DNA of 64,000 nucleotides from an uncultured Bacilli bacterium (GTDB taxonomy: Bacteria > Bacillota_I > Bacilli_A > RF39 > UBA660). The notes under the pieces were generated by a model that was not told the origin of the DNA, made no database searches, and was given only the letters and a program-made list of their open reading frames with translations. Both the position numbers and the translations under genes were made by a program. Positions 882 through 53,781 of this stretch are shown here, in pieces. Location of the stretch: NCBI GenBank assembly GCA_934101175.1, contig CAKOQC010000002.1:220424-284423 (forward strand), read 5' to 3'. Each line of letters opens with the position of its first letter. The first letter of the stretch is position 1.

Positions 882-911
882 TTAATCAAAACTATTTTTT
901 TATTTAGATGC

Positions 912-1034: not shown

Positions 1035-1057
1035 TATATTTCCTCCTTCCTTCCTTT

Positions 1058-11736: not shown

Positions 11737-12429
11737 ATGGATTTAATTAGAATTACTGATGTCCAAAAAACATATAAAACTGGTACAGTAGCCTTATATG
11801 ATGTTGATTTAACAATATCTAAAGGAGAATTTGTATTTATAATAGGAGCATCAGGATCTGGAAAATCTACATTAATAAAAATGCTTTATCGTGAAGAGAA
11901 ACCAGATAAGGGTTCAATCATGATAGGGGGAATAAATGTTGCAAAATTAAAAGATAGAAAAGTATATATACTTAGAAGAAAATTAGGAGTAGTATTTCAG
12001 GATTTTAAATTATTACCTAGACTTACAGTATATGAAAATGTAGCTTTTGCAATGGAAGTATTTGGATATGATAAAAAGAAGATACATCGTAGAGTTATGG
12101 AAGTTTTAGAATTAGTAGGACTTAAAGGAAAAGTTAGACAATATCCAGACCAGTTATCTGGAGGAGAACAACAAAGGGTAGTAATAGCTAGAGCAATAGT
12201 TAATAATCCTAAACTATTGATATGTGATGAACCTACGGGTAATTTGGATCCAGATACTAGTATGGGTATTATGAAAGTATTAGATGATATTAATAAAATG
12301 GGTACTACAATTGTAATGACAACACATAATAGAGATATAGTTAATACTATGAAAAAAAGAGTAGTAGTTTTAAATGAAGGTAAAATAGTTCAAGATTATG
12401 AAAGAGGTAAGTATTATGAAGTTCTTTAG
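11737..12429 (+). CDS. ftsE: Cell-division ABC ATPase FtsE
   Basis: Walker A 'GASGSGKST', signature 'LSGGEQQRV', Walker B 'LLICDEPTGNLD'. Followed by ftsX. Confidence 0.9.
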   Translation: MDLIRITDVQKTYKTGTVALYDVDLTISKGEFVFIIGASGSGKSTLIKMLYREEKPDKGSIMIGGINVAKLKDRKVYILRRKLGVVFQDFKLLPRLTVYENVAFAMEVFGYDKKKIHRRVMEVLELVGLKGKVRQYPDQLSGGEQQRVVIARAIVNNPKLLICDEPTGNLDPDTSMGIMKVLDDINKMGTTIVMTTHNRDIVNTMKKRVVVLNEGKIVQDYERGKYYEVL

Positions 12430-14522: not shown

Positions 14523-14810
14523 TTATCTTTTTTTATTAATATTGGCACTGTCATTTGCTATTCCGTTGTAATAAGATTTTAGTCCTGTATACATTTCTCT
14601 AGCATATGTAATGGCTTCAGAAAGTGAATTCTTTTTTACGAACCATTCAAGGTTACCTCTTTCATCTGTTTCATAAACAAAATATGATTTTGAACTGTCT
14701 TTTGCACTGGCAATACCTACGGTATCAGGTTCGGCACAACATTCATAAACAGCATCTAAAATATTGTTATTAAATAACATTTCATTAATTAAAATATTGT
14801 CTTTTTCCAT
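14523..14810 (-). CDS. Hypothetical 95-aa protein
   Basis: ORF with an AAAGGAAA SD and its own downstream hairpin plus T-run (about 14487-14514). No recognisable motif. Confidence 0.5.
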   Translation of the reverse strand: MEKDNILINEMLFNNNILDAVYECCAEPDTVGIASAKDSSKSYFVYETDERGNLEWFVKKNSLSEAITYAREMYTGLKSYYNGIANDSANINKKR

Positions 14811-16745: not shown

Positions 16746-16835
16746 TAGAAGTAGACAATTATAAAAAAATTGTTCTACTTTTTCTTTTAATTAATAGTAT
16801 TATAGGGGATGATAAACTAATTATAGGGTTTTTAT

Positions 16836-16864
16836 TTGACAAATAAATGTTCTTGTGATAGAAT
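16836..16864 (+). promoter_or_regulatory. Sigma-A-type promoter for the 172-aa ORF
   Basis: TTGACA (16836-16841), a 17-nt spacer, an extended -10 TG at 16856-16857, and TAGAAT (16859-16864). Preceded by the hairpin after the HerA gene (about 16749-16788). Confidence 0.5.
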
Positions 16865-16923
16865 ACTACTCTGTCAATTTGAAAGACGAGAAATATAAAA
16901 GAAATGGAAAGGAATGTGATGTT

Positions 16924-17442
16924 ATGGAGAAGTATTATATTCTTAGTTTAAATAACAATGTATATTCAGAAGTAGAGAATGGTAAAAGAATTAATTCTAG
17001 TTTTGATATCTTTACAAAAGAAGATGAGAATAGCAGTATTAAGATGCCAGGAATGGGACAAGGAATTATACTTGGAGAAGAACGTGATGGAGTAATGTAT
17101 TCTTTGATGCCTGATGATGGAATAGTAATTAATTATGTTCCTCGTAATGAAGAGATGGTAGATGAAAATAATTATCAAGAAGTAGCTTATCCTGGACTTA
17201 GTTATTATGAAAAGAAATTTATACCAACATCATTAGCAGTATTAATTCTATCTAGATATACTAAGAAAAATTATCTTAAGTATGTTAATTGTATATTAGA
17301 TTTATATAATAGAAATGTTTTAAAATATGGAAATATTGTACCTGATGATGAGAAGATATGTGATATAGATAAATTTAAAGATTCTTGTGAATATATGAGT
17401 GAGTTTAAGAAAAGAACAAAAAATATAAGAATTAAGAAATAA
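16924..17442 (+). CDS. Hypothetical 172-aa protein
   Basis: Start moved from the track's GTG 16855 to ATG 16924, downstream of the predicted promoter and a GGAAAGGAA SD. No recognisable domain. Confidence 0.45.
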   Translation: MEKYYILSLNNNVYSEVENGKRINSSFDIFTKEDENSSIKMPGMGQGIILGEERDGVMYSLMPDDGIVINYVPRNEEMVDENNYQEVAYPGLSYYEKKFIPTSLAVLILSRYTKKNYLKYVNCILDLYNRNVLKYGNIVPDDEKICDIDKFKDSCEYMSEFKKRTKNIRIKK

Positions 17443-28976: not shown

Positions 28977-29067
28977 GAAGCTTCTTTTCTTTTTTTTACA
29001 AAAAGTTAATTTATGGTTGCAAAAAAATTAAAAGTATTGTATACTCTTCTTAGGATAGGTGATAGAA

Positions 29068-30036
29068 ATGAAAAAATCATTGGGAAAGGTATTGATAACA
29101 GCTACAGCATGCTTTGCAATGATGGGTAATGTATATGGAGCTGCTAAACCTTCTTTAACATATGTATATTATAACGATCAAAAAGATGGTAATTATCGTA
29201 TAAGAAAAGTAATTGGAAGTAATTCAACATTTATGGATTTTATTACAATGAAAGATACTACTGATAAAGTAGGATATTGTGTAGATGTTGGAAAGAATTT
29301 AAATAAAGATATTAGTTATACAGAAACACAAGATTTAGCATCATATTTAAATGCAACATTAAATAATAGTACTAAAGCTAAAAATTTAGCTGCTAAAATA
29401 AGTCAATATGCTTATTATGGATATACAACATCTGGAACTCGTAATACTAATAATTATTATGCTGCTACTCAAAAATTAATATGGGAAGAATTATATAAGA
29501 ATGGATATGGAAGTTATAATAAAGATGCTTACTTAAGAGCAGATTCAGCAAATATTGAAGTAGATGTTTCTAAAGAAACTAATGAAATACTTAATGCTGT
29601 TGCTAATCATCTTAGAAAGCCATCATTTTGTAGTAGTAAAGATAAATTAGAAATAGGAGTAGGAGAAACAGCAACATTTACAGATAATAATAAAACTTTG
29701 AGTTATTATAAGGTAAGTTGTACATCTGATTTAAAATGTGAACCAAATGGAAATAATTTAAAGGTAACAGTTTTAAAGAAAGATGGAGATAAGAAGATTA
29801 CATTTACAAAAGATGCAAAAGGTACTCCTGCTTTAGTTTATAAACATGCTAATTCTCAAGGAGTATTAGTTGGAGGAAAAGTAGAACCAGTATCTTGTTC
29901 ATTCGGAGTAGATACATTTGAAAATATTCAAACAGCGGGGCCAAAAATGTTAGCAATAGTATCAATAGGATTATTATTTGGATTTATAGCATTCATGGTT
30001 TACTTTGGAAAAGAAAACTTAGGACAACAAAAATAG
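29068..30036 (+). CDS. Surface protein with candidate Cys-Gln thioester domain (TED) and a C-terminal membrane anchor / sorting-like signal
   Basis: Signal peptide 'MKKSLGKVLITATACFAMMGNVYGA'. 'GYCVD' (Cys codon 29278-29280) and 'ATQKLIW' (Gln codon 29470-29472) match the thioester-domain motifs. C-terminus is 'NIQTAG' + TM + basic tail. Confidence 0.55.
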   Translation: MKKSLGKVLITATACFAMMGNVYGAAKPSLTYVYYNDQKDGNYRIRKVIGSNSTFMDFITMKDTTDKVGYCVDVGKNLNKDISYTETQDLASYLNATLNNSTKAKNLAAKISQYAYYGYTTSGTRNTNNYYAATQKLIWEELYKNGYGSYNKDAYLRADSANIEVDVSKETNEILNAVANHLRKPSFCSSKDKLEIGVGETATFTDNNKTLSYYKVSCTSDLKCEPNGNNLKVTVLKKDGDKKITFTKDAKGTPALVYKHANSQGVLVGGKVEPVSCSFGVDTFENIQTAGPKMLAIVSIGLLFGFIAFMVYFGKENLGQQK

Positions 30037-33485: not shown

Positions 33486-34649
33486 ATGTATCGTAATACT
33501 TATGCTTATATAGATGATAAAATACTTACAAATAATATTAGGGAAATAGTTAGAAAATATTCTTTTTATAAATATTATATTGGAGTAGTTAAAGCTAATG
33601 CTTATGGACATGGAAGTTATATTGTTAATGATTTAATTAAAGGGGGGGTTAATTATTTAGCAGTATCTTCATTAGAAGAAGCAATAGAAATAAGAAAATA
33701 TAATAAAGAGATACCTATTCTTTGTTTAGAACCAATAAATATAGAATATTTAGATGTTATTCTTGATAATAAGATAACTATTACAGTAGAAAGTATTGAT
33801 TATGTTAGAGAGTTAGTTAATAAGAAGATAACTTCTAAATTATTAGTTCATCTTAAGTTAGATACAGGAATGAGTAGACTTGGTTATAAAGATAAAGAAG
33901 AATTAATTAAGAGTATTAAATTACTAAGGGAGAATAAGAATATCTTTATAGAAGGTATATATACACATTTAGCTACTAGTGGAATAAATGATAAATATTA
34001 TGATAAACAAATAGATAAATTTAGGTATTTAACTGAAGATATAGATTTAAAAGAAATACCGATTGTACATTTAAATAGATCAATAACACTTACACATCAT
34101 AAGATGTTACCTTTTGAGACAGGAACAAGATTAGGAATAATTATGTATGGTTTTAGTCAGAGTTTACCTGAACCTGTAGGTCTTAGAAAGATAAAAAGAG
34201 ATATACTTAATAAGATTAGACATATTAGTCCTACAGTTATGAGTAATGATTTAAAACTTAAGACAGCATTTTCTTTATATTCAGAAGTAATGAGTATAAG
34301 ATGTATTAAAAAGGGAGATTTTGTAGGTTATGGAGCTAATTATATAGCTAAAGAGGATACTATTATAGGGACTATTCCAATAGGATATGCAGATGGGATG
34401 AGTTCTTTAATGAAATATGTTTGTATAAATAAAAAGAAATATCCAATTGTTGGAGATATTTGTATGGATATGACTATTGTTAAATTAGATGATAGGGTTA
34501 AGTTACATGATAAAGTAGAAATATTTGGAGATACTATTAGTGTTAAGTCAGTAGCTAATAATATGCATAGTAATGCTTATCATGTTTTAACAGGAGTTAC
34601 TTCTAGAGTACCTAGAGTTTATTCAGATGGTAAGACTATTAAATATTAG
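33486..34649 (+). CDS. alr: PLP-dependent alanine racemase
   Basis: 'VVKANAYGHG' PLP-lysine motif; length and C-terminal beta domain are typical. Confidence 0.85.
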   Translation: MYRNTYAYIDDKILTNNIREIVRKYSFYKYYIGVVKANAYGHGSYIVNDLIKGGVNYLAVSSLEEAIEIRKYNKEIPILCLEPINIEYLDVILDNKITITVESIDYVRELVNKKITSKLLVHLKLDTGMSRLGYKDKEELIKSIKLLRENKNIFIEGIYTHLATSGINDKYYDKQIDKFRYLTEDIDLKEIPIVHLNRSITLTHHKMLPFETGTRLGIIMYGFSQSLPEPVGLRKIKRDILNKIRHISPTVMSNDLKLKTAFSLYSEVMSIRCIKKGDFVGYGANYIAKEDTIIGTIPIGYADGMSSLMKYVCINKKKYPIVGDICMDMTIVKLDDRVKLHDKVEIFGDTISVKSVANNMHSNAYHVLTGVTSRVPRVYSDGKTIKY

Positions 34650-34658
34650 AGGTGTAAT

Positions 34659-35879
34659 ATGAAATATAATGTATTAATTATTGGAAGTGATGCTAATGCT
34701 TATTATATGGCTAGATGTTATCATGAAGCATATCATAAGAAAGCTTATGTACTTGCTAAAGGAGAGCTTCCATATACAAAATATTCAAATATATTAAATA
34801 TATTTTATGACTTTTCTATATGGGATGAAGAAGGTTTTTTAAGAGCTATATATAAATTTAAAGAAGAACATAATAATTATAAGACTTTACTTATTAGTTC
34901 TAATGAGAGTTATGCTAGAATGATAGCTAAAAATAAAGAACAACTATTAAAAGATAATTTTATTTTTAATTATCCTAGTTTAGATATTATAGATTCTTTA
35001 ATGATGAAAGAGACTTTTTATAAGAAATATCAAGATTCTTGTTTAAGTTTACCTGAGACATATTATTTTGATTGTAGTAAAGATAAAGTAATTAATAAGA
35101 AGATGAAGTATCCACTTATTCTTAAACCTAGTAATGTTATTATGTATAATCATCTTTCTTTTGAGGGTAAAAATAAGATATATCAAATATATAGTAAAAA
35201 AGAACTTGATGAAGTTATTAAAAGAATAGTAGATGCTGGGTATACGGATACATTAATTATACAAGACTTTATTCCGGGAGATGATACTTATTTATTTGAT
35301 GCAGTTGCTTATGTTTCAAGTGAACATCAAGTAAAATTATTATCTTTAGCTAGAATAGGGCTTCAAGAACATAGTAAGAATATGGTAGGAAATGCTGCTG
35401 TTTTAATAAATGGATATACTGAGGGAATAGATACTAAAGAAATAGAAGAGGAAATGAAGACTTTTCTTGAAGATATTAAGTATCAAGGATTTTGTGAATT
35501 TGATTTAAAATATGATTATCGTGATAAGAAATTTAAAGTATTAGAGATTAATGCTAGACAGGGCAGGAGTAGTTATTATATAACAGGATGTGGATATAAT
35601 TTAGTTAAAGTATTAATAGAAGATTTAATAGAACATAAAGATATGAAATATACTTTTCTTACAGATAGAGTACTTTTATCGTTTGTACCTAGAGGAGTAG
35701 CTTTAAAATATATTAAAGATAAAGAATATAGACAAGAAGTAATTAGGCTTTGGAAATATAGAGTTAATCCAGTTAATTATAGAGAAGATAGAAACTTTAT
35801 GAGAAGATTGTATTTGATAAAGAAATATTTTCGTTATTATAAAGAATATAAGAATGGGTATTGGAAAGATAATCCATAA
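34659..35879 (+). CDS. ATP-grasp ligase of the D-aspartate-ligase (Asl-fm / COG3919) type
   Basis: 'VLIIGSDANAYYMARCYHEAY', 'LILKPSN', 'LIIQDFIPGDD' and 'LEINARQGRSSYY' resemble the E. faecium D-Asp ligase family as I recall it. Confidence 0.6.
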   Translation: MKYNVLIIGSDANAYYMARCYHEAYHKKAYVLAKGELPYTKYSNILNIFYDFSIWDEEGFLRAIYKFKEEHNNYKTLLISSNESYARMIAKNKEQLLKDNFIFNYPSLDIIDSLMMKETFYKKYQDSCLSLPETYYFDCSKDKVINKKMKYPLILKPSNVIMYNHLSFEGKNKIYQIYSKKELDEVIKRIVDAGYTDTLIIQDFIPGDDTYLFDAVAYVSSEHQVKLLSLARIGLQEHSKNMVGNAAVLINGYTEGIDTKEIEEEMKTFLEDIKYQGFCEFDLKYDYRDKKFKVLEINARQGRSSYYITGCGYNLVKVLIEDLIEHKDMKYTFLTDRVLLSFVPRGVALKYIKDKEYRQEVIRLWKYRVNPVNYREDRNFMRRLYLIKKYFRYYKEYKNGYWKDNP

Positions 35880-35892
35880 GGAGTGATTTAGA

Positions 35893-37728
35893 ATGTGTGG
35901 ATTTGTTGGTTTTGTAGATAAGAAAAAGAAAAAAGATAAAGATAAAATAATTAAAGATATGGCAGATGCGATTATTCATAGAGGACCTGATAGTGATGGA
36001 TATTATACTGATGATAAAGTAGCACTTGGATTTAGAAGACTATCTATTATTGATTTAAAGGGAGGAGATCAACCAATCTATAATGAAGATAATAGTATGG
36101 TAATTACTTTTAATGGAGAGATATATAACTATCAAGAATTAAGAGAAGAACTAATAGAGAAAGGTCATAAATTTAAGACTAATACTGATACAGAAGTAAT
36201 ATTACATGGATATGAAGAGTATAAAGAGGAATTATTTCCTAGATTAAGAGGAATGTTTGCTTTTGTTATATATAATACTAAGAGTGGAGAATTAGTAGGA
36301 TGTCGTGATCAATTTGGTATTAAACCATTTTACTATTATAAAAAAGATGATGAATTTATGTTCGGATCAGAAATTAAGGGGATGATACCACATCCTAATT
36401 TTGTTAAAGAAGTAAATGATAAGTCTTTGAAGATGTATTTAATTTTTCAATATTCTGTTTTTGAAGAAACATTCTTTAAGAATGTATATAAGTTAAAACC
36501 TGGACATTATTTTAAATATCATGATGGAGAGTTAGAGATTGGAGAATACTTTAATATTGTTTATGATAAAGAGAATAAACCTTATGAAGAATATAAAAAA
36601 GAGATTAAAGATGTTTTAGCTAATTCAATTAAATATCATCAAATTACTTCTGATGTTGAAGTTGGTTCTTATTTATCAGGAGGAGTAGATTCATCATATG
36701 TTGTTAGTGTGGCTAAACCTGATAAGACTTTTTCAGTAGGATTTGATGTAGCAGGATTTGATGAGACAAAAATGGCAAAAGATTTTTCTGATTTAATGCA
36801 TGTTAAGAATTATAGTAAGTATATTTCAAAAGAAGAATTTTTTGAAAGCCTTCCTAAGGTAGAATATTATACTGATGAACCACATGCTAATCTTTCGACA
36901 GTACCTTTATTATTCTTATCAGAATTAGCTCGTAAACAAGTAAAAGTAGTATTATCGGGAGAAGGATCTGATGAGATGTTTGGAGGGTATAATGAATATT
37001 TAGAACCTTTACCAGTAAAGATATATATGAATATGCCAGGTTTTATTAAGAAGCCAATAGCAGGAATAGCTAAGAAGTTACCACATTTTCCTGGTAAGAA
37101 TACTTTAATTAAATATAGTAAGCCTTTCTGTGAGAGATATATTGGACATGCTCAAGTAATGAATGAAGATGAGGCTAATGAGATACTATGTGATAGACTT
37201 AAAGATGATATGACTACTACAGATGTAATTAAACCTTATTATGAGAAAGTAAAACATGAGAGCGATGTTTTAAAAAAGATGTATATAGATATGCATTTCT
37301 GGTTACCACAAGATATATTACTTAAAGCAGATAAGATGACAATGGCTAATTCAATAGAACTTAGAGTACCTTTTCTTGATAAAGAAGTATGGAATGTAGC
37401 TAGAAAGATACCTACAAAATATCTTGTAAGAAAGAAAAAGACAAAAGAAATATTTAGAAGTGTAGCTGATGAAGTTATGCCAGAAGATTGGTCTAAGAGA
37501 AGAAAACTAGGATTTCCAGTTCCATTTTCTAAGTGGATAAGAGAAGAAAAATATTATAAGGAAGTTAAGAAATACTTTAATTATGATTATGTATCAAAGT
37601 TTTTTGATAAAGATGTAATAAATAAATTATTAGAAGATCATTATCAAGGAATATGTAATAATGGTAGAAAGATATATAATATTTATATATTCTTGATATG
37701 GTATAAAGTATATTTTTGTGGGGATTAA
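35893..37728 (+). CDS. asnB: Glutamine-hydrolysing asparagine synthase family amidotransferase (AsnB paralogue 2)
   Basis: 'MCGFVGF' Ntn Cys2, 'RGPDSDG', PP-loop 'SYLSGGVDSS'. AAGGAG SD. Confidence 0.9.
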   Translation: MCGFVGFVDKKKKKDKDKIIKDMADAIIHRGPDSDGYYTDDKVALGFRRLSIIDLKGGDQPIYNEDNSMVITFNGEIYNYQELREELIEKGHKFKTNTDTEVILHGYEEYKEELFPRLRGMFAFVIYNTKSGELVGCRDQFGIKPFYYYKKDDEFMFGSEIKGMIPHPNFVKEVNDKSLKMYLIFQYSVFEETFFKNVYKLKPGHYFKYHDGELEIGEYFNIVYDKENKPYEEYKKEIKDVLANSIKYHQITSDVEVGSYLSGGVDSSYVVSVAKPDKTFSVGFDVAGFDETKMAKDFSDLMHVKNYSKYISKEEFFESLPKVEYYTDEPHANLSTVPLLFLSELARKQVKVVLSGEGSDEMFGGYNEYLEPLPVKIYMNMPGFIKKPIAGIAKKLPHFPGKNTLIKYSKPFCERYIGHAQVMNEDEANEILCDRLKDDMTTTDVIKPYYEKVKHESDVLKKMYIDMHFWLPQDILLKADKMTMANSIELRVPFLDKEVWNVARKIPTKYLVRKKKTKEIFRSVADEVMPEDWSKRRKLGFPVPFSKWIREEKYYKEVKKYFNYDYVSKFFDKDVINKLLEDHYQGICNNGRKIYNIYIFLIWYKVYFCGD

Positions 37729-37729
37729 T

Positions 37730-39367
37730 ATGAAGAAATTAAAGAAATCATCTTTTTTAGAGGGAGCTTTTATTGCGACATTTTGTATTATTGTTACAAA
37801 GATATTGGGTGTATTATATGTAATTCCTTTTTATAAGATAATAGGAGAACAAGGAGGAACATTATATGGATATGCCTATAATATATATAATGTTTTTCTA
37901 ATTATTTCATCAGCAGGAATACCTTTAGCAATAAGTAAACTTACTAGTGAATACAATACACTTGGGGAAATGGATAAGAAAACAAGGATGTATAGAATAG
38001 CTACAAATATTGTAATGATTTTCTCGATATTTGCTTTTGTAGTTTGTTTTAGTTTTGCTCCACAGTTATCTAATTTAATTATTGGAGAACTTGAAGGAGG
38101 AAATACCATAGATGATGTTACATTCGTTATTAGATTAATATCATTTGCATTATTAATTATACCATTTCTTAGTATTGAGAGAGGTTATTTACAAGGACAT
38201 AGATATATTAAAGAACCTTCTATTAGTCAAGTTATAGAACAGATAGTTAGAATATTAGTAATTATAGTAGGTAGTTATTTATGTACTTATACTTTTAAAT
38301 TACCAATAAAATATGGAGTAGGTATTTCTGTATTTGCAGCATGTATAGGAGGAATAGCAACATTTATCTATCTTAATAGAGTAGTTAAACATAATAAAAA
38401 ACAAATAGGACTTGATATTAAACCAGTAACTACTAAAGATGAGGATAAGGAAATTATTAAAAAGATAATATGTTATTCAATACCTTTTATTGTTATTAAT
38501 CTTGCTAATACTTTATATACTTCAACAGATATGATACTAGTAATTAGAACATTGCCTAAATTAGGATTTAGTGCTACTGATACAGAATTTATTAGTAGTG
38601 TATTTACTACTTGGGGAGTTAAATTTAATACTATTATTACTTCTATTTCTACAGGACTTATAGTTAGTCTTATTCCTAATATGGTAAAAGATTATACGGA
38701 GAAGAATATGTTAGCAGTAAATAGTAACTTTAATAAATGTTTAAAAATAATACTTTTAATAGTAGCTCCTTTAGCAATATATTTAAGTTGTATGTCACAA
38801 AGCTTATGGGATGTCTTCTATGGTAGTAGTGAATATGGTAGTAAGATAATTAAATATACGATAATAGTAACAATCTTTGACTGTTTATATATGGTTATTA
38901 ATTCTTTATTACAGAGTTTAAATAAATCTAAATTAATATATGTAAGTGTTATAACTGGTCTTTTAACTAATTTAATATTAGATATACCTTTAATGTATTT
39001 ATTTGCTAAACTTAATTTACCAGCATATTATGGAGCAATTACGGCTACTTTACTAGGTTTCTTATTATCTAATAGTATTAGTATTATTTATTTAAATAAG
39101 GAAATGCATCTTAATTATAGGGATACGATTAAGGCTATACCTAGATTTATTCTATCAGTAATAGTACTTATAGTGATGTTTAAAGGATTTAAGATGATTT
39201 TACCTATAGATAATCCTAGTAGAATGGTACAAGTATTTAATTTAGCTATTACAGGAATAGTATGTGGAATAGTGTATTTACTTATTAATTTTAAGTATTT
39301 GAAAGAGATACTTCCTAATAAGATAGTTAGAATGATACCACTTGTTAATAAAAAGAAAGAAATTTAG
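37730..39367 (+). CDS. murJ: MOP-superfamily lipid II flippase, MurJ/YtgP/SpoVB type
   Basis: About 14 TM helices. The N-terminus 'FLEGAFIATFCIIVTKILGVLYVIPFYKIIGEQGGTLYGYAYNIYNVFLIISSAGIPLAISK' is collinear with B. subtilis YtgP. ATG lies 2 nt after the asnB stop. Confidence 0.8.
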   Translation: MKKLKKSSFLEGAFIATFCIIVTKILGVLYVIPFYKIIGEQGGTLYGYAYNIYNVFLIISSAGIPLAISKLTSEYNTLGEMDKKTRMYRIATNIVMIFSIFAFVVCFSFAPQLSNLIIGELEGGNTIDDVTFVIRLISFALLIIPFLSIERGYLQGHRYIKEPSISQVIEQIVRILVIIVGSYLCTYTFKLPIKYGVGISVFAACIGGIATFIYLNRVVKHNKKQIGLDIKPVTTKDEDKEIIKKIICYSIPFIVINLANTLYTSTDMILVIRTLPKLGFSATDTEFISSVFTTWGVKFNTIITSISTGLIVSLIPNMVKDYTEKNMLAVNSNFNKCLKIILLIVAPLAIYLSCMSQSLWDVFYGSSEYGSKIIKYTIIVTIFDCLYMVINSLLQSLNKSKLIYVSVITGLLTNLILDIPLMYLFAKLNLPAYYGAITATLLGFLLSNSISIIYLNKEMHLNYRDTIKAIPRFILSVIVLIVMFKGFKMILPIDNPSRMVQVFNLAITGIVCGIVYLLINFKYLKEILPNKIVRMIPLVNKKKEI

Positions 39368-39416: not shown

Positions 39417-41471
39417 ATGGATAATTATAATTTTACGGAAGAAGATTTTACTCCTGGTTTTCATAAGAAACAAATACAAGGTAATGATGGCCAATATTAT
39501 ACAATGAGATGGACAGTTCCAGATGGTGGAATTGATGAAAATACACAGCCTTTATTATATGTTGGCGGCGGAGGCGGTGGACTAGATGGTTTTGATGGAA
39601 CTCAACCGCAATATTTTCGTGATGAACTTACTAAAAATGGTAATGCTAATGCTTTTGTTGTAAATATACAAAGTGGTTATGGTAATAAAATAGCAGGATT
39701 ATCTGATCAAATTAATGGACTAATTGATAGTGCATATAGTAATGCTTCAGTAGATGTTCCAAAGCAAACCAGTTATTCTGGGTGGAGTGCAGGAGCGAAG
39801 GGAGCTTTAGAAGCGGCAGCTTTAACTATTAAAGCAAATCCTGATAATAATAATATAAATGTAGTATATGCTGTTGACTGGGGAGATGATGTTTCTAATG
39901 GATCAGGACCTAATGGCTTTTCTGTTAATGATGCTAATAATTTAGAAATGTTAAATACCTTGGCTGATAACGGAACAACTTTTGTGGCTATTGAACCTAG
40001 ATTATCAGCAGATACTGCTAATAGTGATGCATCTTTAGCAAATCGTTTAGAGGCACTAAAGATGGAAGTAACGCCTGGTGAAGAAGTAGATGCAGGCTTC
40101 TATGTTCCTAAGGAATATGTTAGATGGTCAGAAAAGTCTGATTTAACAATGGTTTTTGCTACTTATGAGTCTAGTGGTAATGAGGGGGATGACCATGCGG
40201 TAGCTCCAAGTGTTTTTGGTGGATCAATGATACCTAGTATTACCGGTGGGGATAAAAATAAGGCTGGAAATGTAGAAAAAGATATTTCTGGTTATAAGTT
40301 TGATTATAATTCATCTGCAGAAGAAGAATTTGAATATTATGCAATGAGTGATGGAATAGCAGTTCCAATATCTTATGATGAATATCTAGACTTAGTATCA
40401 GGTAAAAAGAGTGTACCAGATTATGTATCAGTTAAACGTGATTATTTAGCAAATCCTTTAGTGTCAGTAGATTATGAATTTATACAAGATGGAATGGAAG
40501 CTTTAAAGAGTTTAGCAGCTGGAATGAATATTAATAGTGTTAATAGATATATTCCAGAAGATAACGGATCAGCAACATTTAAAGTAGTTAGTGATCTTTA
40601 TAATAATTATGCAGATGCTTCTAAAGGAATAATAGACGGAGTAATGAAGTCATGTGATAGTATTATTAGTATAGCGGAATCTATACAAAACTTGGATGCT
40701 AGAATGGCTAATACTATTTGTGGACAAATAGATTCTTCGTTAGCGGCAATGGATATAGATTTTGAAAAATATAAAGAGGCATTTATTTCTTCTACTACAG
40801 ATATTAGTCAAGGTAATGAGATAAATATGACTATGGAATCATTACTTAAAGAAGTATCAGCAAATAATGAAATTATTAGTAACATGCACAAAGATATTGA
40901 GGAAACAACAAAGTTAAAGGCAGAAATAGATAAATTCATTGAAGAATCTAATGGTAAGCTTCAAGGTGAAGGCTGGGATTTAGTTAGAGATAAGATGGAT
41001 GAATACAGCGAAATGTTACAGGAGAAGAATGATTATGCAATGGAATTTGTTGATAAAACAATAGAGTCATATAAGAAATTAATTGAATACTTTGAAGATA
41101 ATGTTGTATTAGATACTTCAACAATTCCTGAAGTAAAGACTAGTATTGATAATTTAACTACACAGATAGAAATGTTAATAGCTCATATTGCTGAATTATC
41201 AGATCAATGGGAAGAAGTAACTGTTTATGGTGATGATGGTAAACCTGCAGGAACAATGTTACAAAAAGTAGATAATTCAGCACTTATAGCAGAATGTAAT
41301 GAACAATTAGATGAATGTAGACAAGTAAAACAAGAAATGGAAGCTGTTCTTGAAAAATTAGAAGGATTAAAAGGATTTGATAAAGCACTTGCAGATACAT
41401 TTACCTTCTTAGGATTAGCATCAATTTCTGCTAATAGTTTTTTAGGCGGTATGCTAGGAAGAATAGCATAA
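39417..41471 (+). CDS. Alpha/beta-hydrolase + C-terminal LXG-like helical domain with a glycine-rich hydrophobic tail (reverse-LXG effector candidate)
   Basis: No signal peptide. 'LLYVGGGGGG', nucleophile elbow 'GWSAG' (Ser codon 39786-39788) and 'GDDHAV'. LXG-like 'NGKLQGEGWDLVRDKMDEYSEMLQEKNDYAMEFVDKTIESYKKLIEYFEDNVVLDTSTIPEVK' (L515-x-G517). Tail 'FTFLGLASISANSFLGGMLGRIA'. Confidence 0.6.
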   Translation: MDNYNFTEEDFTPGFHKKQIQGNDGQYYTMRWTVPDGGIDENTQPLLYVGGGGGGLDGFDGTQPQYFRDELTKNGNANAFVVNIQSGYGNKIAGLSDQINGLIDSAYSNASVDVPKQTSYSGWSAGAKGALEAAALTIKANPDNNNINVVYAVDWGDDVSNGSGPNGFSVNDANNLEMLNTLADNGTTFVAIEPRLSADTANSDASLANRLEALKMEVTPGEEVDAGFYVPKEYVRWSEKSDLTMVFATYESSGNEGDDHAVAPSVFGGSMIPSITGGDKNKAGNVEKDISGYKFDYNSSAEEEFEYYAMSDGIAVPISYDEYLDLVSGKKSVPDYVSVKRDYLANPLVSVDYEFIQDGMEALKSLAAGMNINSVNRYIPEDNGSATFKVVSDLYNNYADASKGIIDGVMKSCDSIISIAESIQNLDARMANTICGQIDSSLAAMDIDFEKYKEAFISSTTDISQGNEINMTMESLLKEVSANNEIISNMHKDIEETTKLKAEIDKFIEESNGKLQGEGWDLVRDKMDEYSEMLQEKNDYAMEFVDKTIESYKKLIEYFEDNVVLDTSTIPEVKTSIDNLTTQIEMLIAHIAELSDQWEEVTVYGDDGKPAGTMLQKVDNSALIAECNEQLDECRQVKQEMEAVLEKLEGLKGFDKALADTFTFLGLASISANSFLGGMLGRIA

Positions 41472-41505
41472 TAAAAGAATAAATAAGTGAGAGGTGGCTA
41501 GAGGA

Positions 41506-42537
41506 ATGAAAAAAAGATCAATTTTATTAATAATATTAATGGTTGTTTCTTTTACACTTACATATATCTTTGGATATAATGGATTTAATACTTTAGTTAA
41601 AACACTAATTAATTATAAAGAGAGTAGTAATGTAGAATATAGAGTATATTTAAAAGATAATAATATATATAAAAGTAATATACTTGATATGAATAAGAAA
41701 TATATTACAGAACTTGTTGATTATATAGATATGGACTTTAATTATAAGATTAAGTTTGATAGATATATAAGTGGATATTATTCTTATCTTGTAGAAGCTC
41801 AAGTAGTAGCATATGAAGATGATATTAATGATCCATTATGGATAAAAGAATATAATGAATTAGATAGTAAAGTGGAAGTATTAAATAAAAATAAGATAGA
41901 TACTATTGATATTAAAGATACTGTTAGAATTGGTTATAAAGAATATAAGAAAGTAATAGATGACTTTAAAGAAGAATATGGATTAGATATATCTGGTTAT
42001 TTATTAGTTAAATTTAAAATGAATAAAACAGTAGACTTTAGTGGATTAACAAAAGAAGTTAATGATGATAGAATTATAAAAGTAATAGTACCACTTACTT
42101 ATGATACATTTAAAATAAATGTAATAAATGATAATAATAAGAGTGATAGTTATTATGAATTTACTACTAAGAGTGATGTTAATTATTTATTCTTAATATT
42201 TGCAGCTTTAAGTGGATCAATAGGAGTGTCATTATTAATACTAGTAGTAAAAGAAATGATAGATGTTTCTAAGATGGAAAGTAATTATAATAAAGAACTT
42301 AAAAAGATACTTAAAGATAATAGAGATATAATAGTTAATGTTAATAAATTATACAATAAAAAGAAATATAACTTAATATATGTAGATAGTTTTATAGAAC
42401 TTATGGATGTATATAATAGAGTAGAAAGTCCTATATCATTTAAAGAAATAGAAAAAAATAAAGAAGCAATATTCTTAATTATTGAGAATGATAATGCTTG
42501 GATATATCGTTTAGTTAATAAGAAGAAAGAAAAGTAG
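41506..42537 (+). CDS. Two-TM membrane protein of unknown function, co-oriented just downstream of the hydrolase-LXG gene
   Basis: TM1 'SILLIILMVVSFTLTYIFGY'. About 200-aa extracytoplasmic beta-rich region. TM2 'YLFLIFAALSGSIGVSLLILVV'. About 95-aa cytoplasmic tail. SD AGAGGTGG. Possibly DUF5305-like (from memory, unverified). Confidence 0.55.
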   Translation: MKKRSILLIILMVVSFTLTYIFGYNGFNTLVKTLINYKESSNVEYRVYLKDNNIYKSNILDMNKKYITELVDYIDMDFNYKIKFDRYISGYYSYLVEAQVVAYEDDINDPLWIKEYNELDSKVEVLNKNKIDTIDIKDTVRIGYKEYKKVIDDFKEEYGLDISGYLLVKFKMNKTVDFSGLTKEVNDDRIIKVIVPLTYDTFKINVINDNNKSDSYYEFTTKSDVNYLFLIFAALSGSIGVSLLILVVKEMIDVSKMESNYNKELKKILKDNRDIIVNVNKLYNKKKYNLIYVDSFIELMDVYNRVESPISFKEIEKNKEAIFLIIENDNAWIYRLVNKKKEK

Positions 42538-48390: not shown

Positions 48391-50883
48391 ATGAAAAAGA
48401 AAAAGAATAAAAAGAAGATTATATTATTATTATTATTATTAATATTATTATTAATAATAATAATTATAGGTATTATACTATTTAGAATTTATAATAATAA
48501 GAATAAAGATAATAATAAAGAAGAATTAAATATAAATGATAAGATAGTTATAAATGATACTAATGTTAATATATATAGTAATTTTTATGTGAAGCAGAAT
48601 GAAGATAATATTATAGTATATAATTTTGATAATAATATTATATATAAATATGATGGAAAAATAGATAATTATGAAGTATTTAGTGATAAGTATATTTTAA
48701 TAGATACTGGTAATGAATATATGGTAATAGATAATACTGGTAATATGATAATTAAAGGTACTAATGGTATGAGTGTACATGAGGTGGATACTAATACAAA
48801 ATATATATTAGTAGATAATAAGATATATGATAATGAAATGAAAGAAATATATCAACTTCCTGATTACTTTGTAGAAGAGACTTTTGTTAATTATAATTTA
48901 TATTCTTTAAATATTACTAATAATATACTAGCAATGGTATTTGTTAATAATGAACGTAATATGCTTGTTGATATAGATACTAAGAAAGAGATGTATTTAG
49001 GTTTTGATAGATATTTAAGACTTAGTGATAGATATATAGCTATTGGATATGATAATAAATATAAAATAATAGATACTGATAGTAAGAAAGTAATATATGA
49101 TAATGTAAGAGTAGATGAGAATTTAATTATTTGGAATAATGATAATTATATGTATATTTATAATAATAAGATATATACTGATGGTACTAAGATAAATAAT
49201 AAATATCATATGAAGAGTGAAGGATGCAAAGTAGGAAGTAAACTTGTTTCTGATAATGAAATAAAAATAGATGAATGTATGTTATATTATGAAGAATATG
49301 ATAATGATATTATAATGGGATTTAATATAGATAATAGTGTATTATATATAAATGGTGATGTAAAGAGGGCTAGTCTTTTTAATAAGATAGGTAATTATAT
49401 TAAGAGTTATCAATATAATGAAGGACTTACTACATATAATGTATATGATAGAGATGGTAAGATAATATTAGAGAATAAAGAATTATATTATTTAGGTAAT
49501 GATATATATCAAGAATATGATATAGATGAGAATATTTCTTATTTTTTAGATAGTAACTTAAATATCATATCTGATAAATTTAACTATGCTAGTTGTAATA
49601 ATAATAATGAATATTGTATAGTATCAGATAATAATTATAATAGAATGTTATATAGAAATGGTAAGTTAGTTACAAATAATATATATGATGATATAGAGAT
49701 TAAAGATAATTATATTACTGCTAAGATGTTATTTAATTCATTTATATATAGATTAGGTAATCTTGATGAGATTAATATTGATTATATAGAAGAAGTTCGG
49801 ATAGATACTAATGAAATGATAAATAAATATGAATTAAGTAACATTCACGATAAGATAGAGAATAATAAGATATTATTTAATAAATATGCTTATATAGTAG
49901 AGAATAATAATAATTTACTTGAATATAAAAAACAAGTTATGGATATGTTTAGTGTTGTTATAGATAATAAGGAATATTTAAATGAATTAACTTTACTTAA
50001 AAAATTAAAAGATCTTAATATAGAACATGTTCAAGATTTAGGAGCAGGAATAGCTGGTACTTATTCAGATTCATTTGGAGATATTAAGATTAGACTTAAA
50101 GAGAGAAGTAATAATACTTTATATCATGAACTTATGCATTTTATAGATTATTCTTTTAATAGTAATAATTTAGGAACTTATATATATGATTGTAATGGAA
50201 AATATTTAGTAGGGAAAAGTTATAATACGACATGTGATATAGTTAGTATTGATACTAATTTTATTGTTGAAGCAGGAGCAGAAGTATATTCAGGAAAGTA
50301 TTTTACTAAAGAAGTTATGGCTTATCAACCAGCTCCGACGATATTAGAAGCTTTAGAATATATATGTGGTAGTGATGAAGTTAGAGAATGGTATTTTAAT
50401 AATGATATATATTTTAAGATGTTATGGTTTGATATAGGATATTCGAAAGAGAAAGTTGATAAGATAATAGAAGCACTTACTAGTCAGACACAGGTTATTA
50501 GAAATGGTGATGATAATATACTTTTAATAGTAGATAGTTTAATTGATTTATATAAATATAGAAATGGTAATGAATTTCTTAAGGATAATAAATTTAAATA
50601 TATTATTAGGAGTATACTAAGCTATAGAGATGATTTTAATTCTTCTAAATATAAGAATGAATTAGAAGAGATAATGAGTGATAAAGATACTATTGTTAAT
50701 GTTTTTAGAGATAAGTTTAGTGAATATGGATACTATGACGGATATGGAAATATATTAATTATAGATAATCAAGTATATATATCTATTCCTTGTTATAAAG
50801 ATAATAAATTAGGAGTATTACTTATAGAGTATGATTTTAATAATAATAGAGTATTAGATTATAGTTATATGGAAGTTAAATAA
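48391..50883 (+). CDS. Membrane-anchored 830-aa protein: WG-like beta repeats plus a C-terminal HExxH (zincin-like) domain
   Basis: AAGGAG SD. Lys-rich N-terminus and a Leu/Ile-only TM helix. Repeats of the type 'YMVIDNTGNMIIKG' and 'YKIIDTDSKKVIYDNV'. 'TLYHELMHFIDY' metallopeptidase-type motif. Confidence 0.5.
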   Translation: MKKKKNKKKIILLLLLLILLLIIIIIGIILFRIYNNKNKDNNKEELNINDKIVINDTNVNIYSNFYVKQNEDNIIVYNFDNNIIYKYDGKIDNYEVFSDKYILIDTGNEYMVIDNTGNMIIKGTNGMSVHEVDTNTKYILVDNKIYDNEMKEIYQLPDYFVEETFVNYNLYSLNITNNILAMVFVNNERNMLVDIDTKKEMYLGFDRYLRLSDRYIAIGYDNKYKIIDTDSKKVIYDNVRVDENLIIWNNDNYMYIYNNKIYTDGTKINNKYHMKSEGCKVGSKLVSDNEIKIDECMLYYEEYDNDIIMGFNIDNSVLYINGDVKRASLFNKIGNYIKSYQYNEGLTTYNVYDRDGKIILENKELYYLGNDIYQEYDIDENISYFLDSNLNIISDKFNYASCNNNNEYCIVSDNNYNRMLYRNGKLVTNNIYDDIEIKDNYITAKMLFNSFIYRLGNLDEINIDYIEEVRIDTNEMINKYELSNIHDKIENNKILFNKYAYIVENNNNLLEYKKQVMDMFSVVIDNKEYLNELTLLKKLKDLNIEHVQDLGAGIAGTYSDSFGDIKIRLKERSNNTLYHELMHFIDYSFNSNNLGTYIYDCNGKYLVGKSYNTTCDIVSIDTNFIVEAGAEVYSGKYFTKEVMAYQPAPTILEALEYICGSDEVREWYFNNDIYFKMLWFDIGYSKEKVDKIIEALTSQTQVIRNGDDNILLIVDSLIDLYKYRNGNEFLKDNKFKYIIRSILSYRDDFNSSKYKNELEEIMSDKDTIVNVFRDKFSEYGYYDGYGNILIIDNQVYISIPCYKDNKLGVLLIEYDFNNNRVLDYSYMEVK

Positions 50884-51957: not shown

Positions 51958-53781
51958 TTAAGCTAGATTACCATAACTAGCAATTTTTTGAAATACATAA
52001 GTACCAGTTGCTAATAATAATGCAACTATTCCAATAAATATGATATGTATATAGTTAATACCAGTTTGAGGATTAGTTTGAATGTTGTTAATACAGTTCA
52101 TGTATACACTATTGTTCGCTCCATATATACCTTGAATTGTACCATCGGTGACTCTTGTTGTATCCATATCATTATTTTTTGAATAAAAGTCTATTAAACA
52201 TTTATATTGAGCACCATTTAAATATTTATAGCTATTTTTATTATTAAGAAAATTGCTATCAGCAATAACATAAGTTTCATCATTTCTATCTGGTAATATA
52301 ATATTATTAGTAGGGATACCTTGCATAGATAAAAAACTTAGTTTATTATTATTAATTAAATTCATGCTCTTGATATTTGTATTGTCAATACTAATTGTGG
52401 TTAAATTACTATTATTGCTTGTGTCAAGATTGGAAATTTTAGTATTAGATAGATATAAATATGTAAGCATTTCATTGTTAGAAATATCAATGCTAGGTAT
52501 TGAGTTATAGCTTGCATCTAGATACTGTAAATTGTTTTTTGATAAATCTAATGTAGTTAATTTGTTGTTGTTAATCTGAAGTCCACTTAATTTAGTATTT
52601 TTAGAAACATCAATACTAGATAATATATTATTGTCAATTAATAACTCAAATAAATAAGTGTTTTTAGATACATCAATATTAGAAATATTGTTATAAGATA
52701 AATATAAGTCTAGTAATTCAGTATTTTTAGAAACATCAATGCTCGATAATTTGTTTTTCTTAGCTCTTAAAAATTTTAAATTGATTAGTGCAGAAACATC
52801 TATTTTAGATAGTTTATTACTATTTAAATATACAGTTTGTAATTTAGTGTTTTTAGATAGCTCAATGTTAGATAAATTGTTGCTATTTAAATTTAGCTCT
52901 GTCAATTCAGTATTTTTAGATAAATCAATGTTGGTTAGTTGATTATTACCTAAATATAGATTTTGTAATTTAGTGCTTTTTGATAAATCGATACTAGATA
53001 ATTTGTTCTTGGCAACATCTAATTTAGTTAATTTAGTGTTTTCTGGTAAGTTAATACTAGATAAACTGTTATTTGCGGCATTTAATTCAGTTAATTCAGT
53101 ATTTTTAGAAATATCAATGCTAGACAATTTATTATTGTTAATTTTAAATATGGTTAACTTAGTGTTTTTAGATACATCAATACTAGATAGACTGTTATTT
53201 GCGGTATTTAATTCAGTTAATTCAGTATTTTTAGAAACACCAATGCTAGACAATTTGTTATTGTAAATATCAAGTGTAGTTAACTTAATGTTTTCAGATA
53301 TATCAATACTGGATAAATTGTTGTTACTTATATTTAACTTGGTTAATTCAGTATTTTTAGATAGATTTATTTTAGATAAATTATTTGCATAAATATCAAG
53401 TACAGTTAACTTAGTGTTTTTAGAAACATCGATAGTTGATAATTTGTTGTTAGCTAAATATAGTTTGGTTAGATTTGTCATCTTACTTAGGCCAGTGACA
53501 TCGCTTACTTGTGGGCCAACAACACCATGGTTAATACCATTCTTAAGTACTACAGGCTCACAAGCAAGGCTAGTTAATTGACTTAACTCGTTATCAGTTA
53601 CTTTGTATTCAGTGGTACGATTAGTTACATTATTAATTTTATCATTATTTAGAGTATTAATAATACATTCATAGAATACATCGTCTTTAAAAGCTGTATT
53701 AGCAGGAGTAGCTTTAACATTACTTGTAAAGATAAATGTACTTATTACTATGATAGTAAATAGTTTTAAAAATTTTTTCAT
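51958..53781 (-). CDS. Leucine-rich-repeat surface protein (about 18 x 21-aa LRRs) with an NPQTG-type sorting-like signal
   Basis: Signal peptide 'MKKFLKLFTIIVISTFIFTSNVKA'. Cap-like 'FKDDVFYECIINTL'. Repeats of the type 'LSSIDVSKNTELTELNxxNNx'. C-terminus is 'NIQTNPQTG' + TM + 'QKIASYGNLA'. Confidence 0.8.
   Translation of the reverse strand: MKKFLKLFTIIVISTFIFTSNVKATPANTAFKDDVFYECIINTLNNDKINNVTNRTTEYKVTDNELSQLTSLACEPVVLKNGINHGVVGPQVSDVTGLSKMTNLTKLYLANNKLSTIDVSKNTKLTVLDIYANNLSKINLSKNTELTKLNISNNNLSSIDISENIKLTTLDIYNNKLSSIGVSKNTELTELNTANNSLSSIDVSKNTKLTIFKINNNKLSSIDISKNTELTELNAANNSLSSINLPENTKLTKLDVAKNKLSSIDLSKSTKLQNLYLGNNQLTNIDLSKNTELTELNLNSNNLSNIELSKNTKLQTVYLNSNKLSKIDVSALINLKFLRAKKNKLSSIDVSKNTELLDLYLSYNNISNIDVSKNTYLFELLIDNNILSSIDVSKNTKLSGLQINNNKLTTLDLSKNNLQYLDASYNSIPSIDISNNEMLTYLYLSNTKISNLDTSNNSNLTTISIDNTNIKSMNLINNNKLSFLSMQGIPTNNIILPDRNDETYVIADSNFLNNKNSYKYLNGAQYKCLIDFYSKNNDMDTTRVTDGTIQGIYGANNSVYMNCINNIQTNPQTGINYIHIIFIGIVALLLATGTYVFQKIASYGNLA
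52310..53490 (-). repeat. In-frame 63-bp tandem repeat array (LRR modules) with a 126-bp higher-order unit
   Basis: For example, 'ctgttatttgcggYatttaattcagttaattcagtatttttagaaa' occurs at 53066 and again at 53192 (126 bp apart) with one mismatch. Confidence 0.85.

Follow-up and report, generated by a model that had tools for sequence, protein, structure and literature searches.

A probable type VII secretion substrate combining a hydrolase head, an apparently fused Lap-like unit and a C-terminal LXG-type domain in an uncultured Bacilli bacterium

How could a protein that ends in an LXG-type helical region reach its site of action when it has no signal peptide and no secretion gene lies around it? 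The question is raised by gene A, which encodes a protein of 684 amino acids (aa) on a stretch of 64,000 nucleotides (hereafter the window; contig CAKOQC010000002.1 of assembly GCA_934101175.1, positions 220,424 to 284,423) from an uncultured Bacilli bacterium of the RF39 lineage. A first-pass annotation, made from the sequence alone, had described the protein as an alpha/beta hydrolase followed by an LXG-type domain, and had pointed to a paralogue in the same window, here called gene B. Our analysis leads us to consider it rather likely that the gene A protein is a three-part effector without signal peptide, exported by a system resembling the type VII secretion system b (T7SSb) that would be encoded elsewhere in the genome. 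A hydropathy scan of the gene A and gene B proteins found neither a transmembrane (TM) segment nor a signal peptide, the latter as stated for gene A in the first-pass annotation, and the motifs quoted there (LLYVGGGGGG, the GWSAG elbow, GDDHAV and KLQGEGWDLVRDKM, the last at residues 514-527) are all present in gene A.

The identity of the C-terminal helical region comes from its relatives. An exhaustive HMMER search of 1.84 billion representatives with a profile of gene A and gene B returned 235 proteins at E<=1e-3, and the family is in this sense rare. In most of the matches, profile positions ~515-697 aligned with residues ~10-190 of proteins of either ~200 aa or 400-700 aa, which is the canonical N-terminal placement of an LXG domain. 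One relative, P0024, is certified as LXG by Pfam (36.4 bits for PF04740 against a cutoff of 26.5) and shares 33% identity with residues 489-659 of gene A (BLASTP, E 3e-15). Moreover, when 28 long-form relatives, that is, proteins with a Lap-like unit and then an LXG unit in one chain, were compared by hhalign with 91 proteins of the N-terminal LXG type, the two groups aligned over 193 columns with a probability of 100% (E 1.5e-39). The consensus of the 91 relatives, F-I-x-x-S-x-x-x-L-x-G-x-x-W-D-x-V-R-x-K-L, has an invariant Gly and a Leu kept in at least 90%, and its core F..S...LxG..WD.VR.KL is common to gene A and the N-terminal relatives. PF04740 is matched by 21 of these 91 proteins (E<0.01), the next commonest family by six.

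The position of the L-x-G motif is that of an LXG domain as well. In an AlphaFold2 model of residues 335-684 (predicted local distance difference test score, pLDDT, 81; predicted template modelling score, pTM, 0.71), L515-Q-G517 (model residues 181-183) lies at the turn between helices 151-177 and 184-225. Among the long-form relatives the Gly of this motif is found in 26/28 and Leu, Ile or Phe at its first position in 26/28, while a Trp three residues past the Gly is present in every one (28/28). The conserved motif that follows the beta hairpin, LIEYFEDNVVLDTSTIPE, retains Tyr558 in 26, Asp566 in 28 and Glu572 in 26 of the 28. The L-x-G of gene A is read in the forward orientation. Judged from these alignments, residues 469-660 are a true, forward-oriented LXG homologue, as the first-pass annotation had proposed, and the location of this domain within the 684 residues confirms that the domain order is the reverse of that in canonical LXG toxins.

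The stretch that separates the hydrolase from the LXG domain holds a further helical hairpin which, on the evidence of profile matches, appears to be a Lap-type partner fused in cis. A canonical Lap is a separate protein of ~100 aa, and by binding to the LXG domain it completes a composite targeting bundle (PMC10801868). A profile made only from residues 340-482 of gene A and gene B matched two free open reading frames (ORFs), one of 100 aa at locus L009 (E 2.9e-8) and one of 95 aa at locus L011 (E 7.9e-4), and the first-round family profile of the unit matched the same ORFs at 4e-16 and 5e-10, respectively. Both sit immediately upstream of canonical LXG genes. The reverse search with the free 100-aa ORF recovered ~20 long-form proteins, always at the position preceding the LXG unit and nearly end to end, and with 769 six-frame ORFs from all loci as background the Lap-like profile found only these pre-LXG regions and those small ORFs. 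The alignment is colinear from end to end; the free ORFs stop a few residues past a motif h-x-x-[LM]-[DE], which reads I-Q-N-L-D427 in gene A and Y-Q-E-L-D, eleven residues before the C-terminus, in the 95-aa ORF. This motif is reminiscent of the F/YxxxD export arm that Lap1 carries (PMC10801868), and its acidic position is kept in 28/28 members. Among curated families, TIGR04197 (SACOL2603/DUF3130, Lap1) was matched by 8/28 Lap-like units (best E 0.0012, under the 26-bit cutoff) and DUF5344 (Lap3) by 2/28 (best E 4.7e-4), with one match each to DUF3130 and LXG and single matches to other NCBIfam families. The linker that joins the Lap-like and LXG units, predicted to be disordered in gene A, varies in length across relatives. 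A Lap-like unit inside the chain would explain why no helper ORF is found beside gene A, and the undescribed export or partner system that had been invoked in the first-pass annotation to account for the missing helpers gives way to this explanation.

The N-terminal domain is supported as an alpha/beta hydrolase with Ser124 as its nucleophile. Its AlphaFold2 model (pLDDT 68.6, pTM 0.76) has an alternating beta-alpha-beta topology, and Foldseek against the Protein Data Bank (PDB) returned 717 matches at E<=1e-3. All of the top matches listed are alpha/beta hydrolases (top E 6e-8, TM-score 0.35-0.49), the best of them being cutinase/PETase-type esterases, the Streptomyces exfoliatus lipase 1JFR, siderophore esterases and the catalytic domains of S9 peptidases. 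The LLYVGGGGGG motif follows strand 3, and Ser124 sits between strand 118-123 and helix 125-140, as expected of a nucleophile elbow. In an alignment of 13 very divergent related heads, collected by exhaustive HMMER and local phmmer, this serine is the only invariant residue apart from the initiator (13/13), flanked by Gly122 (12/13) and Gly126 (11/13). In the column of Asp157, 11/12 sequences have an acidic residue, and Asp157 may therefore be the acid of the triad. Most relatives carry a [D/S/E]-His pair 2-4 residues past strand 8; in gene A and its closest relative the His (H260 in gene A) is located in a longer loop (pLDDT <50) that is not aligned by column, which makes it a plausible, though not column-exact, catalytic His. 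Of the hydrolase features on which the first-pass annotation had relied, the fold is supported by the model of gene A, the serine is conserved in homologues, and a histidine is present in most of them without being exact to the column. None of the top 50 fold matches is recognizable as a class-3 lipase, and nothing in this head points to the class-3 identity reported for TslA and TslM. The features of both genes and of the gene that follows gene A are collected in Table 1.

Table 1. Coordinates of gene A, its parts, its downstream neighbour and its paralogue (positions of the window)
Feature	Position	Strand	Basis or remark
Gene A, hydrolase-Lap-LXG protein, 684 aa	39417..41471	+	ORF list; ATG start; stop codon included
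Alpha/beta-hydrolase domain, residues 1-~320	39417..40376	+	AlphaFold2 model and Foldseek
Nucleophile elbow G122-W-S124-A-G126	39780..39794	+	Conservation in head alignment and AlphaFold2 model
W155-G-D157-D158, candidate catalytic acid after strand 6	39879..39890	+	Head alignment
G257-D-D-H260-A-V, candidate catalytic His after strand 8	40185..40202	+	Alignment and model
Lap1/Lap3-like helical hairpin, apparently fused in cis, residues 345-435, ending I-Q-N-L-D427	40449..40721	+	Profile matches
Predicted disordered linker between Lap-like and LXG units, residues 436-468	40722..40820	+	pLDDT <50 at model residues 102-131
LXG-type domain, residues 469-660 (helix-LxG turn-helix, beta hairpin, long C-terminal helix)	40821..41396	+	Homology and model
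L-x-G motif, L515-Q-G517	40959..40967	+	AlphaFold2 model and alignments
Conserved post-hairpin motif LIEYFEDNVVLDTSTIPE, residues 555-572	41079..41132	+	Family consensus Y-M-x-x-[YF]-D-E-L-D-x-S-K-I-P-E
Short, mildly hydrophobic C-terminal tail FTFLGLASISANSFLGGMLGRIA, residues 661-684	41397..41468	+	19-residue Kyte-Doolittle maximum 1.36, below the TM threshold
Membrane protein, 347 aa, two TM segments (7-31, 229-256), 22 nt after gene A	41494..42537	+	Hydropathy
Gene B, 794-aa paralogue	6198..8582	-	ORF list; head, Lap-like unit, LXG, linker, extra domain

The way in which these units are joined and separated across the family bears on the export route. In a census of the architectures of 152 sequences, 43 were long-form, with the LXG unit 35-85 residues after the Lap-like unit, and 104 had an LXG unit only, which starts within the first 40 residues in 97 cases. 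Among the long-form proteins, 18 have a detectable alpha/beta-hydrolase-like head, and in 34 the cassette is preceded by at least 150 aa; at least 100 aa follow the cassette in 27, and four carry it at the very N-terminus. The C-terminal placement of the LXG module given by the first-pass annotation is thus correct for gene A and does not extend to the family, since a region of at least 100 aa follows the cassette in gene B and in those 27 proteins. That the family is modular, with differing enzymatic heads and tails, is also supported by its domain content: in P0007 the Lap-LXG cassette stands between an N-terminal glucosaminidase and a C-terminal LysM domain, P0011 has a glucosaminidase, and canonical relatives such as P0053 have a C39-like domain, M15 and lysozyme domains being found among relatives as well.

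Free Lap-like ORFs are found upstream of canonical LXG genes at L009 and L011-13. The first of these loci has three small ORFs upstream of the canonical LXG protein P0020 and a DUF4176 gene downstream; at the others, a 72-aa ORF and the 95-aa ORF, which overlaps the LXG start, precede an LXG-lysozyme protein. No free Lap-like ORF was found within +-10 kb of the long-form genes, namely A, B and those of L003, L004, L007, L008 (two), L010, L014 (two) and L015. At L016 (461-3496) the split is a natural one: a 572-aa protein consists of a hydrolase-like head (E 4e-5) and a Lap-like unit (E 2.8e-13), the 211-aa LXG protein P0024 starts within 2 nt of its stop, and a 100-aa helical ORF and an ESAT-6-like 102-aa ORF follow. 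Here the enzymatic cargo is joined to the Lap-type partner and not to the LXG protein. The contig of L010 carries P0053 together with ESAT-6/WXG100 genes (E 5e-11) and an EssC-like gene of 1525 aa with FHA and FtsK_SpoIIIE domains, and a 907-aa long-form gene, P0052, lies ~2 kb upstream of these WXG100 and EssC-like genes. Since relatives at L010 and L016 are linked to T7SS genes, a T7SS elsewhere in the genome of gene A would be the economical expectation, and the gene A protein is, from the sequence evidence, a probable T7SS substrate.

In the mechanism that we propose, the protein would be made in the cytoplasm with an N-terminal Ser-Asp-His hydrolase of the esterase/lipase or peptidase type as its cargo. 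The Lap-like hairpin, with its export-arm-like h-x-x-L-D motif, and the LXG hairpin would pack against each other within the chain into one composite T7SS signal made of the L-x-G turn and the acidic export arm, which an EssC-type ATPase would recognize, exporting the protein together with its hydrolase. Such a bundle would correspond, in Firmicutes, to the EspB of mycobacteria, and because Lap and LXG are fused, no helper gene would be needed beside gene A. The substrate of the hydrolase is probably in the cell envelope, the target to which the glucosaminidase, LysM, C39-like, M15 and lysozyme domains of the relatives point.

Several observations weigh against this interpretation. Neither gene A nor gene B matches PF04740 even at E<=1; membership of the LXG family is thus given by homology, through transitive and profile evidence, and not by the curated cutoff. 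Likewise, the hydrolase head matches no Pfam or NCBIfam family, Lipase_3 included, and reaches no curated hydrolase threshold. All TIGR04197 and DUF5344 matches of the Lap-like units are sub-threshold, and the unit of gene A itself matches neither of these families nor DUF3130. Gene A has Asn562 where 20/28 relatives carry Tyr or Phe in the second [YF]xxLD motif. A search of the PDB by Foldseek with the model of the helical part found nothing significant (best E 0.06, TM-score 0.27-0.33), and the similarity to LXG or WXG proteins expected from the first-pass annotation is therefore seen by profile and not by fold search. The top-ranked, non-significant entries were EspB structures (4XXX, 4XWP, 7P0Z, 4WJ1; probability 0.77-0.87, TM-score ~0.3), an order that fits a single-chain Lap-LXG bundle and is not proof of it. 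Searches of PDB sequences with the gene A family found nothing related, and Pfam, NCBIfam and PDB-sequence scans of the gene A and gene B proteins gave coiled-coil noise only.

The surroundings of gene A speak against it too. There is no T7SS gene in the 64-kb window, and this claim of the first-pass annotation is borne out in several ways: the largest ORF has 859 aa, leaving no gene of EssC size; Pfam scans of most large ORFs (a few were left out) identified housekeeping or other non-T7SS genes; of the only five non-overlapping ORFs of 60-136 aa, none is WXG100- or Lap-like and none adjoins gene A or gene B; and the Lap-like family profile matches gene A and gene B only. Neither an immunity-gene array nor a recognizable immunity gene was found at gene A, which is atypical for polymorphic toxins, and most of the long-form genes examined stand alone among housekeeping genes without immunity arrays.

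These last observations are what could be expected if gene A encoded a housekeeping enzyme, such as an autolysin-type enzyme or an envelope esterase, acting on the wall or membrane of its own cell, the cassette serving for export through a T7SS or otherwise. Such a self-acting role is a serious alternative to an antibacterial toxin, and we regard it as possible but not probable. It would fit the peptidoglycan-directed domains of the relatives (P0007, P0011 and P0053), the several paralogues per genome and the location of gene A, which follows alr, ATP-grasp-like, asnB-like and MurJ-type flippase genes after a gap of 49 nt. Peptidoglycan hydrolase and lipase domains are, however, also common in antibacterial toxins of type VII and type VI secretion systems, and the neighbourhood of gene A is not kept among relatives. 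In addition, the canonical relatives lie in loci of toxin type, where a DUF4176 gene and, downstream, small ORFs are present, and the membrane protein encoded downstream of gene A could be an immunity protein. It is also conceivable that the helical cassette is a relic of the LXG/WXG superfamily without a role in T7SS targeting, the protein being cytoplasmic or released by another way (holin, lysis) and the bundle acting as a scaffold, an oligomerization module or a regulatory module. The lack of T7SS genes in the window and within +-10 kb of most long-form relatives agrees with this, as does the missing aromatic residue of the second YxxxD-like motif in gene A; moreover, scans for close relatives found no A- or B-type match in 185,579 species-representative genomes, and hence no cultured T7SS-positive host is known. 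We nevertheless judge a relic to be improbable, because the export-relevant motifs are strongly kept (the LxG turn, and in 28/28 members the Trp that follows it and both acidic positions of the export arm) and because one long-form member has EssC and WXG100 genes as its neighbours. Furthermore, the LysM and glucosaminidase relatives start directly with the enzyme domain and have no annotated signal peptide; relatives that act outside the cell without such a peptide need a route other than Sec.

The combination of a helical region and a hydrolase domain in one protein might also suggest a wall hydrolase of the CwlO/PcsB type, in which a coiled coil is the regulatory arm controlled by FtsEX. 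Genes ftsE and ftsX do lie at 11737..13318, a few kb from gene B, and relatives carry peptidoglycan hydrolase domains. CwlO and PcsB, however, have Sec signal peptides and a coiled coil placed N-terminal to the catalytic domain, whereas gene A and gene B lack a signal peptide. The homology of the helical region is specifically to the LXG and Lap families and is not that of a generic coiled coil, and neither gene adjoins ftsEX; we thus consider this explanation very remote. Export of gene A by a T7SSb-like system encoded elsewhere, with the cassette as the signal, is the interpretation that we retain in what follows.

Reverse arrangements of T7SS substrates have been described before, in Tsl1 (2023) and Tsl2 (2026), phospholipases with free partner and immunity genes adjacent (PMC10730906, PMC13560087). 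TslA, the Tsl1 protein of S. aureus, resembles gene A in its N-terminal serine hydrolase with a G-x-S-x-G elbow, its C-terminal helical targeting region, its lack of a signal peptide and the presence of multiple paralogues per genome (PMC10730906). The first-pass annotation had drawn this analogy, which holds for the architecture and fails for the orientation of the motif and the class of lipase, the published description of TslA being what sets the two apart. Indeed, the head of TslA was modelled on a class-3 lipase (Yarrowia Lip2), whereas that of gene A has cutinase/esterase and S9-type folds and no Lipase_3 match. The helical domain of TslA has a reversed G-x-L in its primary sequence (PMC10730906), in contrast to the forward L-x-G of gene A and its sequence homology to N-terminal LXG domains. 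TslA also relies on two free partners, TlaA1 and TlaA2, and has an adjacent lipoprotein immunity gene, unlike gene A with its internal Lap-like unit and no adjacent small helical genes.

In TslM of the Tsl2 family a single Lap-type partner suffices (PMC13560087), and gene A likewise has one Lap-like unit. The Tsl2 immunity proteins are membrane-anchored, which loosely recalls the 347-aa membrane protein downstream of gene A. However, aa 268-384 of TslM are predicted to be unstructured, whereas the middle of gene A is a predicted structured hairpin homologous to free Lap-type ORFs, and the partner of TslM is TlaM, a WXG100 protein of 99 residues that has its own gene alongside. Tsl2 loci have DUF1433 immunity arrays and lie on genomic islands, in contrast to the housekeeping surroundings of gene A; here again it is by its description that TslM is set apart.

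With canonical LXG toxins (Klein et al., PMC10801868; PDB 8GMH) gene A has in common a homologous LXG domain with an L-x-G turn, a Lap-type hairpin with an acidic export-arm motif and, in its family, variable enzymatic domains, and its close relatives are found in loci with Lap-like ORFs, DUF4176, WXG100 and EssC genes. The canonical proteins differ in having the LXG domain N-terminal and the toxin C-terminal, with separate Laps, usually two (Lap1-Lap2 or Lap3-Lap4); in gene A the cargo is N-terminal, one Lap-like unit appears to be covalently fused upstream of the LXG domain, and no second Lap was identified. The LXG-Lap sub-complex has itself been likened to PE25-PPE41 and to EspB, the latter being the fused version (Klein et al., PMC10801868). 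EspB, a fused PE-PPE protein of the ESX-1 system of M. tuberculosis, resembles gene A in having both targeting hairpins, a WxG/LxG-type turn and a YxxxD-type arm in one chain. It has no detectable sequence homology to gene A, however, and the fold matches are non-significant (E>=0.06, TM-score ~0.3); it belongs to the T7SSa substrates of Actinomycetota, lacks an enzymatic cargo and oligomerizes into rings.

In the literature that we searched, with incomplete coverage, we found no description of a cis-fused Lap-LXG unit or of an internal LXG cassette. By August 2026, Tsl1 and Tsl2 were the only reverse T7SS substrate families described, both of them phospholipases that need separately encoded helpers. 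Compared with the descriptions of TslA and TslM, the gene A family is probably a third family of reverse effectors, which differs from Tsl1 and Tsl2 in its hydrolase type, forward LXG, cis Lap, movable cassette and, in some members, non-lipase heads. It thereby bears on a question of the Tsl2 authors, namely whether the reverse arrangement carries other cargo domains (PMC13560087): the alpha/beta-hydrolase head is of another kind, and some members have an N-terminal glucosaminidase. One LXG sequence family can thus occupy an N-terminal, a central or a C-terminal position in substrates, and the cis Lap would provide a natural single-chain LXG-Lap bundle, of which natural split variants also exist. 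Searches keyed to an N-terminal LXG domain and neighbouring lap genes would miss proteins of the gene A type. A signal in a single chain might also be a convenient minimal tag for work on EssC recognition, on the direction of transport and on secretion engineering, the basis for it being bioinformatic.

A wider possibility, which we consider unlikely, is that in this uncultured, low-GC lineage of Bacilli the position-independent, single-chain Lap-LXG cassette suffices by itself as the export tag of ordinary envelope enzymes (esterases, glucosaminidases, LysM proteins) which lack a signal peptide, a helper gene and an immunity gene. If so, type VII secretion would be a general housekeeping route for exo-enzymes, beyond the delivery of toxins. 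Should the genome prove to be without EssC, the cassette would work with an undescribed exporter.

Gene B offers a comparison within the window. The two proteins are 35% identical over A319-660 and B277-605 (BLASTP, E 6e-49); their heads are not detected as similar by BLASTP and have ~19% identity in a MAFFT alignment, with the GWSAG and GVSVG elbows in register. The sharing of both modules asserted by the first-pass annotation is therefore clear for the helical part and restricted to the level of the family profile for the head. Gene B has an alpha/beta-hydrolase-like head with Ser136 in GVSVGG, a Lap-like unit at ~297-385 (MSNLD377) and an LXG unit at ~419-608 (L465-E-G467, YDELD515). Its ~185 extra C-terminal residues, made of a low-complexity linker (611-690) and a domain of ~100 aa (691-794), bear out the different C-terminus noted previously, to which the differing heads and tails of the relatives may be added. 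The paralogue was correctly located in the first-pass annotation except for its end: position 8567 (6198..8567) is that of a second Met, and the ORF extends to 8582. A small C-terminal domain common to gene B and the 572-aa protein of L016 was considered and rejected (BLASTP, E=1.0). The much shorter C-terminal tail of gene A is kept in the fragment P0002, which is 90% identical.

An orthologue of gene A with 99% identity is found on metagenome contigs, where the order of the genes is the same. The 347-aa membrane protein encoded after gene A matches no Pfam or NCBIfam family and might be a partner or immunity protein of gene A. It lies beside gene A in the same species only; with no homologue beside any other family member, it was rejected as a conserved partner. 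Directly upstream of gene A, on the same strand (33486..39367), are genes for an alanine racemase, a 406-aa ATP-grasp-like protein (weak Pfam matches), an AsnB-type amidotransferase and a flippase of the MurJ/Polysacc_synt type, and a second asnB-like gene lies near gene B (1831..3684). This run of wall-precursor genes may be a peptidoglycan-modification cluster, and its linkage to gene A is kept within the species only. Promoter and terminator scans gave counts not above those of shuffled window DNA of 26% GC.

The nearest relatives of gene A come from metagenome-assembled genomes of uncultured "Bacilli bacterium", and the scans for close relatives in the 185,579 species-representative genomes mentioned above, which worked by exact 8-mers, were made with gene A and with the helical region of gene B. 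A word-indexed homologue search with gene A returned its own cluster only and missed relatives that exhaustive HMMER found easily, its pre-filter probably having been swamped by the low-complexity words of proteins from AT-rich genomes. A phage or plasmid origin of gene A was set aside, as tblastn gave no match in phage or plasmid collections. Two structural leads were also abandoned: the WXG100 structures 3GVM and 3O9O (E ~0.05 with a two-sequence profile) were not reproduced with 28-sequence profiles, and an internal duplication relating the Lap-like and LXG units, suggested by iterated local profiles, was not relied on because of possible profile drift. Among the relatives, long-form genes occur as tandem pairs at L008 (3983-8877; 676 aa and 931 aa) and L014 (495-6547; 1052 aa and at least 935 aa), and the metagenome-assembled genome GCA_017465005.1 has at least three paralogues. 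P0018 (228 aa) has an N-terminal ELYHWGVKGMKWGVRRF motif ahead of its LXG-type region. A few relatives match phage-type families (SPP1 portal, scaffold, DUF7217), and some LXG-type cassettes may be prophage-borne.

The window as a whole (25.9% GC) has the look of an ordinary Bacillota chromosome, with agrB, asnB-like, ftsK, prfB, ftsEX, suf, ddl, rny, cdaA/ybbR, spoVS and alr genes as well as genes for a MurJ-like flippase and ABC transporters, mscL and mutS. The first-pass annotation had taken the housekeeping ftsK for the sole FtsK-family gene; this ftsK is indeed present, and so is an ATPase of the FtsK/HerA superfamily, of DUF87/HerA type, which is not EssC-like in size or domains. The latter (582 aa) is encoded at 14997..17442 together with a following 195-aa ORF without family, and a 95-aa ORF lies upstream of it on the opposite strand (14523..14810). 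An 830-aa ORF without Pfam match (48391..50883, plus strand) has one strongly hydrophobic N-terminal anchor (5-37), a large Asn/Tyr-rich region and, near residue 580, a HELMH motif (HExxH) like that of zinc metalloproteases. A 607-aa leucine-rich-repeat protein (51958..53781, minus strand) and a 325-aa thioester (TED) protein (29059..30036, plus strand) have domain types typical of surface adhesins. At the edge of the window (6..1672) lies an agr-type quorum-sensing pair, comprising the C-terminus of a GHKL histidine kinase (6..881) and AgrB (1058..1672, minus strand).

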